In this document: positions 2,142 through 15,526 of the stretch, in pieces
Layout: the number at the start of each line of letters is the position of its first letter
Position numbering within the stretch: the first letter of the stretch is position 1
Assembly (NCBI RefSeq): GCF_003334815.1
Contig: NZ_QOWO01000042.1
Length of the DNA stretch: 32,004 nucleotides
Strand: one strand, 5' to 3'
DNA from: Escherichia coli
GTDB lineage: Bacteria > Pseudomonadota > Gammaproteobacteria > Enterobacterales > Enterobacteriaceae
Program-made: the position numbers and the translations under genes
Notes under the pieces: model-generated
What the model was told of the DNA's origin: nothing
What the model saw: only the letters and a program-made list of their open reading frames with translations
Databases searched by the model: none

Positions 2142-2756
2142 TTATTCTTCAATCGCTAACAATTGCAATGAACCACGGCTAAAATCCGCCAGCTTTGCGG
2201 AAAATTCAGCCACTTTCGCCGCCGGAAGCGCCACCCGCAGCAGAACGAATGCCTGATAATCACTGTTGATAATTTTGCCGTCACACTGCCCCAGCAACGC
2301 TTCAATGCCGGTTAACTGATGATATTCACATTGCAAAGTATATTCGGTTAATGGCGTCTTGCGTTGGGTCGTTAGCTGGCGCAGCGCCTGATTCACGCCG
2401 CCGCCATACGCTTTCACTAACCCACCGGTGCCAAGCAATATGCCGCCGTAGTAGCGCACTACCACAGCGGTAATTTCCCCGACGCCGCTGCCCATTAGCT
2501 GGGCGAGCATCGGTTTACCTGCCGTTCCCGCCGGCTCCCCGTCGTCAGAGAAACCCAGCTGTTGAGAATCATCCGGCGCACCCGCGACCCACGCCACGCA
2601 ATGGTGCCGGGCATCGGGGTGTTCTGCCCGCACCGATTCAACAAACGCTTTCGCCGCCTCAACGCCATCGGTATGCGCCAACATCGTTATGAAGCGGCTC
2701 TTTTTGATCTCTTCAACGACCGTGACCGGTGCCGCAGGAATTAACCAGCTTTCCAT
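2142..2756 (-). CDS. yigZ: IMPACT-family protein YigZ, 204 aa
   Basis: ORF track gives [20 protein letters not shown]...; the first codon is GTG and the second is ATG. ATG at 2754-2756 taken as start, overlapping the pepQ TGA by 1 nt. Confidence 0.88.
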   Translation of the reverse strand: MESWLIPAAPVTVVEEIKKSRFITMLAHTDGVEAAKAFVESVRAEHPDARHHCVAWVAGAPDDSQQLGFSDDGEPAGTAGKPMLAQLMGSGVGEITAVVVRYYGGILLGTGGLVKAYGGGVNQALRQLTTQRKTPLTEYTLQCEYHQLTGIEALLGQCDGKIINSDYQAFVLLRVALPAAKVAEFSAKLADFSRGSLQLLAIEE

Positions 2757-4087
2757 CACGCCAGTTTCAGATCCCGGGTCATGTTTTCCACGTTGTTTTC
2801 GTGGATCACCACGTTGTCTTCGATACGAATGCCGCCGAACGGTTTCAGTGCTTCAATTTTCTGCCAGTTGAAGTGCTTGCTGAACTGCCCTTCACGCCAC
2901 GGTGCCAGTAGCGATTCGATGAAGTAGATACCCGGTTCGATGGTTAACACCATGCCCGGCTGGAGAATACGGGTGCAGCGCAGGTACGGATATTTTGCCG
3001 GTGCCGCGAGGTGCGTACCGCTATCATCCTGCATAAAACCAGCGACGTCATGCACCTGCAGGCCCAGCGGATGGCCGATACCATGCGGCATAAACGGCCC
3101 GGTAAGATCGTTTTCGACCATCGCTTCTTCACTCATATCGGTGATGATTTGATGTTTACGCAGCAGTTTGGCGATGCGCTGATGGAACTGGATGTGGTAA
3201 TCCACATAGCTGACGCCTGCTTTCATGGTGGCGATCAGCGCCAGTTGTTCATCATTAACGTCCTTCACCAGCTGCGCGTAGTCGTTGTCACTTTTTGCCG
3301 ACCAGGTACGGGTCAGGTCAGCCGCATAGCCGTTATATTCTGCCCCGGCATCCAGCAGGAAGCTGCGCATCTCTTCCGGTGCCTGATGGTCCAGTTTGGT
3401 GTAATGCAGTACCGCAGCGTGTTCGTTAAGCGCCACAATGTTGCTGTAAGGTACGTCGGTATCACGATGACCGGTCGCGGTCAGATAGGCAATGTTGATA
3501 TCGAACTCGCTCATGCCAGAACGGAACGCTTCTTCTGCCGCGCGGTGACCGTTGACCGCCATTTTCTGCGCTTCACGCATACAGGCCAGTTCGTACTCAG
3601 TTTTGAAGGAGCGATAGTAATGCAGGTAGTCGATAACCCCTTTCGGGTTGATGTTGCTGGCCTCAATACCCAGTTGCAGCGCACGTTCCGGCACCGGACC
3701 GATATAACCGATATTGCCGCGCGCAGCAGGCAGCAGGCTACCAATGCCATCGGCTTTCGGCAGCGCGATCACTTCCACATCTTCAGTCCAGAAAGAGGTC
3801 GGCAGCGGTTCGACGTTGTGCCAGTAATCAACCGGCAGATAGAACCACAGTTTCGGCTTGTTCACGCCATCCACCAGCAACCAGCAGTTTGGCACCTGAG
3901 TTACCGGCACCCACGCTTTGAATTGCGGGTTCACTTTAAACGGATAGGGATGATCGTCGAGAAAAACATTGAACAGCTCGCCGGAGTGAATAAGTAACGC
4001 ATCCAGCTTGAAGCGCGCCAGCGCATCGCGAGTCCGTTCTTGTAAGGTAGCTATATGATTTTTATAGAGCGAGGCCAGTGATTCCAT
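2756..4087 (-). CDS. pepQ: Xaa-Pro dipeptidase (prolidase) PepQ, 443 aa
   Basis: 443-aa [40 protein letters not shown]... recognised as PepQ (M24 metallopeptidase family). Confidence 0.93.
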
Positions 4088-4234
4088 TTTTTACCCTTCT
4101 GTTTTTTTGACCTTAAGTCTCCGCATCTTAGCACATCGTTCATCCAGAGCGTGATTTCTGCCGAGCGTGATCAGATCGGCATTTCTTTAATCTTTTGTTT
4201 GCATATTTTTAACACAAAATACACACTTCGACTC

Positions 4235-4251
4235 ATCTGGTACGACCAGAT
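4235..4251 (+). promoter_or_regulatory. FadR operator in the fadBA promoter
   Basis: Near-perfect dyad ATCTGGTACGACCAGAT about 25 bp upstream of the fadB ATG; fits the FadR operator consensus (TGGT-N3-ACCA core). Confidence 0.8.
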
Positions 4252-4276
4252 CACCTTGCGGATTCAGGAGACTGAC

Positions 4277-6466
4277 ATGCTTTACAAAGGCGACACCCTG
4301 TACCTTGACTGGCTGGAAGATGGCATTGCCGAACTGGTATTTGATGCCCCAGGTTCAGTTAATAAACTCGACACTGCGACCGTCGCCAGCCTCGGCGAGG
4401 CCATCGGCGTGCTGGAACAGCAATCAGATCTAAAAGGGCTGCTGCTGCGTTCGAACAAAGCAGCCTTTATCGTCGGTGCTGATATCACCGAATTTTTGTC
4501 CCTGTTCCTCGTTCCTGAAGAACAGTTAAGTCAGTGGCTGCACTTTGCCAATAGCGTGTTTAATCGCCTGGAAGATCTGCCGGTGCCGACCATTGCTGCC
4601 GTCAATGGCTATGCGCTGGGCGGTGGCTGCGAATGCGTGCTGGCGACCGATTATCGTCTGGCGACGCCGGATCTGCGCATCGGTCTGCCGGAAACCAAAC
4701 TGGGCATCATGCCTGGCTTTGGCGGTTCTGTACGTATGCCACGTATGCTGGGCGCTGACAGTGCGCTGGAAATCATTGCCGCCGGTAAAGATGTCGGCGC
4801 GGATCAGGCGCTGAAAATCGGTCTGGTGGATGGCGTAGTCAAAGCAGAAAAACTGGTTGAAGGCGCAAAGGCGGTTTTACGCCAGGCCATTAACGGCGAC
4901 CTCGACTGGAAAGCAAAACGTCAGCCGAAGCTGGAACCACTAAAACTGAGCAAGATTGAAGCCACCATGAGCTTCACCATCGCTAAAGGGATGGTCGCAC
5001 AAACAGCGGGGAAACATTATCCGGCCCCCATCACCGCAGTAAAAACCATTGAAGCTGCGGCCCGTTTTGGTCGTGAAGAAGCCTTAAACCTGGAAAACAA
5101 AAGTTTTGTCCCGCTGGCGCATACCAACGAAGCCCGCGCACTGGTCGGCATTTTCCTTAACGATCAATATGTAAAAGGCAAAGCGAAGAAACTCACCAAA
5201 GACGTTGAAACCCCGAAACAGGCCGCGGTGCTGGGTGCAGGCATTATGGGCGGCGGCATCGCTTACCAGTCTGCGTGGAAAGGCGTGCCGGTTGTCATGA
5301 AAGATATCAACGACAAGTCGTTAACCCTCGGCATGACCGAAGCCGCGAAACTGCTGAACAAGCAGCTTGAGCGCGGCAAGATCGATGGTCTGAAACTGGC
5401 TGGCGTGATCTCCACAATCCACCCAACGCTCGACTACGCCGGATTTGACCGCGTGGATATTGTGGTAGAAGCGGTTGTTGAAAACCCGAAAGTGAAAAAA
5501 GCCGTACTGGCAGAAACCGAACAAAAAGTACGCCAGGATACCGTGCTGGCGTCTAACACTTCAACCATTCCTATCAGCGAACTGGCCAACGCGCTGGAAC
5601 GCCCGGAAAACTTCTGCGGGATGCACTTCTTTAACCCGGTCCACCGAATGCCGTTGGTAGAAATTATTCGCGGCGAGAAAAGCTCCGACGAAACCATCGC
5701 GAAAGTTGTCGCCTGGGCGAGCAAGATGGGCAAGACGCCGATTGTGGTTAACGACTGCCCCGGCTTCTTTGTTAACCGCGTGCTGTTCCCGTATTTCGCC
5801 GGTTTCAGCCAGCTGCTGCGCGACGGCGCGGATTTCCGCAAGATCGACAAAGTGATGGAAAAACAGTTTGGCTGGCCGATGGGCCCGGCATATCTGCTGG
5901 ACGTTGTGGGCATTGATACCGCGCATCACGCTCAGGCTGTCATGGCAGCAGGCTTCCCGCAGCGGATGCAGAAAGATTACCGCGATGCCATCGACGCGCT
6001 GTTTGATGCCAACCGCTTTGGTCAGAAGAACGGCCTCGGTTTCTGGCGTTATAAAGAAGACAGCAAAGGTAAGCCGAAGAAAGAAGAAGACGCCGCCGTT
6101 GAAGACCTGCTGGCAGAAGTGAGCCAGCCGAAGCGCGATTTCAGCGAAGAAGAGATTATCGCCCGCATGATGATCCCGATGGTCAACGAAGTGGTGCGCT
6201 GTCTGGAGGAAGGCATTATCGCCACTCCGGCGGAAGCGGATATGGCGCTGGTCTACGGCCTGGGCTTCCCTCCGTTCCACGGCGGCGCGTTCCGCTGGCT
6301 GGACACCCTCGGTAGCGCAAAATACCTCGATATGGCACAGCAATATCAGCACCTCGGCCCGCTGTATGAAGTGCCGGAAGGTCTGCGTAATAAAGCGCGT
6401 CATAACGAACCGTACTATCCTCCGGTTGAGCCAGCCCGTCCGGTTGGCGACCTGAAAACGGCTTAA
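4277..6466 (+). CDS. fadB: Fatty-acid oxidation complex alpha subunit FadB (enoyl-CoA hydratase / 3-hydroxyacyl-CoA dehydrogenase), 729 aa
   Basis: ORF track 4151..6466; accepted N-terminus [23 protein letters not shown] begins at the ATG at 4277, preceded by GGAG; the upstream in-frame extension is rejected. Confidence 0.93.
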
Positions 6467-7639
<1,173 letters not shown>

Positions 7640-7645
7640 CCACTT

Positions 7646-7830
<185 letters not shown>

Positions 7831-7890
7831 GGTTTGCCAGATACGTCATAGATCTAAATGCCACTGAATAACAGTTTAGTTGCCGTTCTT

Positions 7891-7918
7891 CCCGCCTGTC
7901 AGGGGCGGGTTTTTTTAT
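7891..7918 (+). terminator. Rho-independent terminator, probably ending the fadBA transcript
   Basis: CCCGCC-TGTCAG-GGGCGGG hairpin followed by TTTTTTTAT on the + strand, downstream of fadA and the REP cluster. Confidence 0.7.
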
Positions 7919-7921
7919 ATC

Positions 7922-13283: not shown

Positions 13284-15526
<2,243 letters not shown>

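Follow-up and report, generated by a model that had tools for sequence, protein, structure and literature searches.

The operator through which FadR represses the fadBA beta-oxidation operon is described in E. coli K-12 (DiRusso et al. 1992; Feng and Cronan 2012; Zhang et al. 2014). A 37-bp fadBA probe, ACTTCGACTCATCTGGTACGACCAGATCACCTTGCGG, is bound in EMSA by wild-type FadR, but not by the DNA-binding mutant W60G, and loss of fadR raises the expression of a fadBA-lacZ fusion more than 3-fold (Zhang et al. 2014, PMC4259882). Feng and Cronan (2012, PMC3460868) reported a derepression of 5- to 10-fold for fadBA-lacZ without FadR. According to a 2022 review (PMC9329746), the FadR consensus is aaCTGGTCnGACC(T/A)Gtt, the releasing ligand is an acyl-CoA of C14 or longer, and fadBA is directly repressed from a site that overlaps the transcription start and denies access to RNA polymerase. 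The same review lists 1H9T as apo-FadR bound to a DNA operator; FadR structures, this one among them, are present in the PDB. ArcA and FIS also act at the fadBA promoter (PMC9329746, PMC3460868), and a putative FIS site, TTGCATATTTTTAACACAA, has been placed at -36 to -18 (PMC3460868). Both papers state that fadBA has no identified CRP site and that activation by CRP may be indirect (PMC3460868, PMC9329746).

The FadR sites of fadL, fadD, fadE, fadI, fadH and fadM are also 17 bp long and have in common a core of the CTGGT(C/A)-N-GACC type. Like the fadB site they lie near the start of a fad gene, the end of the box being 21-42 nt before the ATG in fadE, fadI, fadH and fadM. FadR also binds the activator sites of fabA and fabB, whose left half-site belongs to the same family (CTGATC). 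These two sites lie upstream of the -35 element, at about -40, where FadR activates. In contrast, the fadB box, at about +1, represses.

We analysed a 32,004-bp stretch of DNA, called here the window, in which a 17-mer at 4235-4251 (the box) is almost certainly the FadR operator of the E. coli fadBA operon. It is identical to the K-12 fadBA operator in every base and has the same neighbours and the same distance to the ATG, so that there is no difference at the site. This box is already known; it is an ordinary, textbook site and holds nothing new about FadR. The genes and the box with its parts are as follows.

2756-4087, minus strand: pepQ, the divergent neighbour (RefSeq annotation)
4235-4251, no strand assigned: FadR operator of fadBA, ATCTGGTACGACCAGAT (sequence, published identity, PWM, conservation)
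4235-4241, plus strand: left arm ATCTGGT, containing the half-site core CTGGT (inverted repeat I3, pairing with the right arm at 100% complementarity)
4245-4251, plus strand: right arm ACCAGAT, half-site core ACCAG (inverted repeat I3)
4266-4270, plus strand: Shine-Dalgarno sequence AGGAG of fadB (sequence; in the alignment GGAG does not vary and the A beside it hardly does)
4277-6466, plus strand: fadB coding sequence, 729 aa (RefSeq annotation of identical DNA; translation checked)
6476-7639, plus strand: fadA coding sequence, second gene of the operon (open reading frame list and annotation)

The window is E. coli chromosome: a 281-bp segment (4050-4330) matches 5,426 of 5,426 complete genomes at 95-100% identity, with pepQ and fadB as the annotated features beneath the match. 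The gene map is the RefSeq annotation transferred from a strain with identical E. coli DNA. It places hemG, trkH, yigZ and pepQ on the minus strand and fadB, fadA and then fre and ubiD on the plus strand, with a divergent pepQ/fadB spacer of 189 bp. The spacer is identical to that of K-12 MG1655 over 192 aligned columns; the window as a whole comes from a different strain, its fadA-fre spacer measuring 282 bp versus 380 bp in K-12. The fadR gene lies outside the window and is found in 5,423 of 5,426 complete E. coli genomes, among them strain 504239, which is identical to the window over the pepQ-fadB segment (4050-4330).

Exact identity to a tested operator, together with location, is the decisive evidence. 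The box has the same 17 letters as the "fadO operator" bound by FadR in a biosensor paper (PMC7372789), and it forms the core of the fadBA EMSA probe (PMC4259882), which corresponds exactly to window positions 4225-4261. The first-pass annotation had read the site as an acyl-CoA-responsive FadR operator that could be matched to the published one; both points hold, the second letter for letter and the first on the strength of the published EMSA, the lacZ fusions and the review (PMC9329746). That FadR binds the box directly, that acyl-CoA releases it, and that fadR mutation or oleate derepresses fadBA is taken from this literature; the sequence, its uniqueness, the identity with the published operator, the PWM rank, the conservation and the promoter hexamers come from the present analysis. 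The identification of the box also confirms that of the fadBA genes.

The 7-nt arms are 100% complementary and flank a 3-nt centre (repeat finder), 14 of the 17 positions being self-complementary, a dyad symmetry that suits a homodimer. Among the fad repressor sites, only the fadB box has two perfect cores and perfectly complementary 7-nt arms. The first-pass annotation had placed a canonical dyad in the pepQ/fadB divergent spacer, about 25 bp upstream of the fadB ATG. Sequence, location and uniqueness are all borne out, and 25 nt are counted between the box and the ATG at 4277. The word canonical fits the two perfect cores but not every base. Against the published FadR consensus the box has 3 mismatches in 16 specified positions, all of them in the flanks or the centre, with AT...AT as outer bases and A at position 8 versus AA...TT and C8 in the consensus; it is still the best match in the window. 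No other copy of ATCTGGTACGACCAGAT occurs in the window at up to 3 mismatches, its own reverse strand apart, and the box is the sole instance there of the core CTGGT-N3-ACCWG.

These counts bear on the proposal that the dyad arose by chance, or that it serves another regulator such as ArcA, FIS or a different GntR-family protein, which we hold to be extremely improbable. An exact 17-mer is expected by calculation about 4e-6 times per 32 kb, and even at up to 3 mismatches only 0.03 matches are expected; none of 100 shuffled sequences contained 2 matches. ArcA and FIS do act at the fadBA promoter in the literature, but the published FIS site, at 4199-4217, is upstream of the box. The EMSA with the identical probe refutes both versions of this proposal for practical purposes. 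What favours a chance origin is the failure of small weight matrices (PWMs) to separate the box from background.

The smallest training set, from which fadB was left out, consisted of six EMSA-validated sites (two each from fadL and fadD, and those of fabA and fabB). The box ranks 9th in the window with the resulting PWM and 3rd with its symmetrised form; with a half-site dimer model it ranks 5th, not above shuffled sequence, and the six-site matrices do not put it above shuffled windows. These poor ranks arise because T at position 2, absent from all six sites, is penalised on both arms, and the six-site matrices were set aside as under-trained. A ten-site set was made by adding the best consensus matches upstream of K-12 fadE, fadM, fadI and fadH, fadB again being excluded. 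With this leave-one-out PWM the box ranks first among 31,988 window positions. Its score, 14.8 bits in the oriented and 15.6 bits in the symmetrised version, falls within the span of the training-site scores, and the runner-up within the spacer reaches 2.8-3.3 bits. Since 9-30% of shuffled 32-kb windows attain the score of the box somewhere, the PWM score needs a positional prior and is by itself modest evidence. The score is not a poor one, although the scan, with ranks of 3 to 9 for the six-site matrices, is a weaker test than the first-pass annotation had assumed.

After the box, the FadR PWM gives its highest score in the window, 11.5-13.7 bits, to AGGCGATCAGACCACCT at 13313-13329. This sequence is within the 3' end of ubiB, about 110 nt upstream of tatA; it has a single good half-site and is probably a chance match. 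No second FadR box was seen in the window; upstream of yigI, an acyl-CoA thioesterase gene, for instance, the best score is -2 bits.

Conservation also argues against a chance palindrome, since at least 83 species have the exact box in the same position. Within E. coli, the box was extended by the next 13 bases to a 30-mer, and about 5,416 of 5,426 complete genomes carry it at 100% identity, a count that may include a few rare variants at the first bases, as one listed match begins at query base 3. With the 37-bp probe, which has 10 extra upstream bases, two mismatches appear in 2,818 of the 5,426 genomes. An alignment of five strains maps them to 4231-4233, directly upstream of the unchanged box and between it and the -10 hexamer (see below). 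These three bases, ACT in the window as in K-12 and ATG or TTT among other strains, are polymorphic in more than half of E. coli genomes. The box is near-invariant in 5,426 genomes while three adjoining bases vary freely.

When one genome per species was scanned, at least 120 records contained the exact 17-mer. Among the 120 matches listed, 83 precede a fadB ATG by 23-28 nt, usually next to pepQ, so that at least 83 Enterobacterales species have the exact 17-mer before fadB (FadB N-terminal identity 69-100%); as the set was chosen by the exact 17-mer, it gives breadth and not a rate of divergence. The other 37 of the matches listed are in unrelated phyla; about 35 chance matches are expected by calculation in 298 Gb, a comparison that is only approximate given that the 37 are counted among the matches listed. 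The sequence and its distance to fadB thus hold across many Enterobacterales genera. In 15 species the box is reversed relative to fadB and reads ATCTGGTCGTACCAGAT, with CGT instead of ACG at the centre. These include members of Dickeya, Brenneria, Serratia, Providencia and Moellerella, and they keep the same arms and the same 23-28 nt to the ATG. For a symmetric dimer that works by occupancy, the orientation of the box would not matter.

The promoter was read from conservation, after the fadB upstream regions of diverged genera had been aligned (33 sequences). Beyond the box, the invariant blocks are TTTGCA (4198-4203), TTAACA (4209-4214) and CACA[C/A]T (4222-4227); further upstream, GTGATC (4167-4172) and then GCA (4179-4181) are invariant as well. 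From GTGATC to the -10 hexamer the alignment is ungapped in all 33 sequences. A simple consensus scan of 4000-4400 revealed no strong sigma-70 promoter, which fits a weak, activator-dependent one. The promoter elements proposed on this basis are listed below.

4166-4181, no strand assigned: candidate CRP-like box, cGTGA-TCAGAT-CGGCA, centred at -61.5 from 4235 (conservation)
4199-4204, plus strand: putative -35 hexamer TTGCAT (TTTGCA invariant in 33 sequences; overlaps the putative FIS site)
4222-4227, plus strand: putative -10 hexamer CACACT, 17 bp past the -35 (CACA[C/A]T invariant in 33 sequences, A2 and T6 kept)
4235 (about 4234-4236), plus strand: probable fadBA transcription start (FIS numbering and hexamers)

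Two lines of reasoning converge on this start. The FIS sequence TTGCATATTTTTAACACAA, numbered -36 to -18 in the literature, is found at window positions 4199-4217, and the +1 of that study (PMC3460868) is consequently 4235. TTGCAT and CACACT, taken as -35 and -10 with a 17-bp spacer, would give a start at 4234-4236; position 4235, the first base of the box, lies 7-8 nt past the conserved -10 hexamer. The hexamers and the published numbering agree, and the box would span about +1 to +17. The conserved hexamers are independent support for a start near the first base of the box. As to direct maps, neither fadB nor its coordinates were found in the start-site supplements of four studies (Ettwiller 2016, Kim 2012, SMRT-Cappable-seq 2018, Conway 2014).

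A different numbering must be considered. The 1992 footprint paper of DiRusso reportedly numbered the box +9 to +25, which would place +1 at 4227 and make CAAAAT (4215-4220) the -10. This alternative hexamer is not conserved in the 33-sequence alignment. RNA polymerase covers about -55 to +20 at initiation. Under either numbering the box is inside the DNA covered by the enzyme, and it does not lie far down the leader but adjoins the promoter, at about +1 to +17 by the preferred count. Its geometry fits a repressor site overlapping the -10/+1 region, the start itself being deduced from the hexamers and the FIS numbering. By its consensus, dyad symmetry, overlap with the start, orthologous conservation and the presence of fadR in the genome, the fadB box qualifies as a FadR operator.

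The following scheme would account for these features. A FadR homodimer, of the GntR family and with a winged helix-turn-helix, binds the CTGGT/ACCAG half-sites of a box that probably begins within a base or two of the start, just downstream of a weak promoter. Bound there, FadR would occupy DNA needed by RNA polymerase, so that initiation is blocked. After the import and activation of long-chain fatty acids, acyl-CoA of at least 14 carbons binds the C-terminal domain of FadR, which then leaves the DNA and allows fadBA to be transcribed. ArcA and cAMP-CRP modulate the promoter further. Steric occlusion is the standard inference for repression of this kind, and the exact start has the same standing.

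Alternatively, the dyad could act mainly as RNA, in the form of a 5'-terminal hairpin that shields the fadBA mRNA from 5'-end-dependent decay, with FadR playing a secondary part. This is most unlikely. With +1 at 4235, the leader in its minimum-energy structure does open with a 6-bp stem and a 3-nt loop derived from the box, but the whole leader folds no better than shuffled sequences (z = -1.63; 15 of 200 shuffles fold at least as well). Furthermore, FadR binding to the box DNA and fadR-dependent repression are published, and the box fits a consensus common to FadR sites at different promoter positions. The hairpin is at most a by-product or an added role of the FadR operator.

TTTGCA and TTAACA (4198-4214) are 11 bp apart and read TGTTAA-N5-TGCAAA on the minus strand, resembling ArcA direct repeats; they also overlap the putative FIS site at 4199-4217. 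These two blocks may explain the reported control of fadBA by ArcA and FIS.

The upstream blocks led to a more tentative proposal, namely that the FadR box is the downstream end of a rigidly spaced Enterobacterales promoter module (CRP-like box, -35, -10, FadR box) and that CRP activates fadBA directly, in the class I manner; we consider this possible but somewhat doubtful. A centre at -61.5 is the classic class I position of CRP. Across the 33 diverged fadB upstream regions, GTGATC and GCA of the CRP-like box never vary, and no gap interrupts the distance from them to the -35 and -10. In E. coli the candidate has 6 of 10 core bases, a level common by chance, as 547 positions on a single strand of the window have it too; among 84 orthologous regions, 21 reach 8 of 10. 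The CRP-like box is a lead suggested by conservation and spacing rather than an established site. If real, it would resolve a minor open point, the route of catabolite control to fadBA.

Better versions of the CRP-like sequence occur in other genera, for example TGTGATCTTGTTTGCA. The pepQ-fadB spacer also contains an exact 9-nt direct repeat, GAGCGTGAT, at 4147-4155 and 4163-4171, 16 bp apart. Its second copy contains the CRP-like GTGA, and the first is conserved only in close relatives.

Some further elements of the window may be mentioned. Positions 4125-4135 hold a conserved block, TTAGCACA; its reading on the minus (pepQ) strand, TGTGCTAAGAT, resembles an extended -10 (TGc-TAAGAT) for pepQ, about 38 nt before the pepQ ATG. 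The convergent fadA-fre spacer (7640-7921) carries a REP-derived naRNA4/CssrE element (Rfam match at 7698-7775, minus strand). Strains differ in the length of this spacer by increments of about 98 bp (K-12, 380 bp; the window, 282 bp; strain 504239, 183 bp), which suggests REP copy-number variation. Finally, a full-length Rfam match to the small RNA EsrE (319 bits) is found at 14921-15172 on the minus strand, overlapping the 3' end of ubiJ as in the K-12 annotation.
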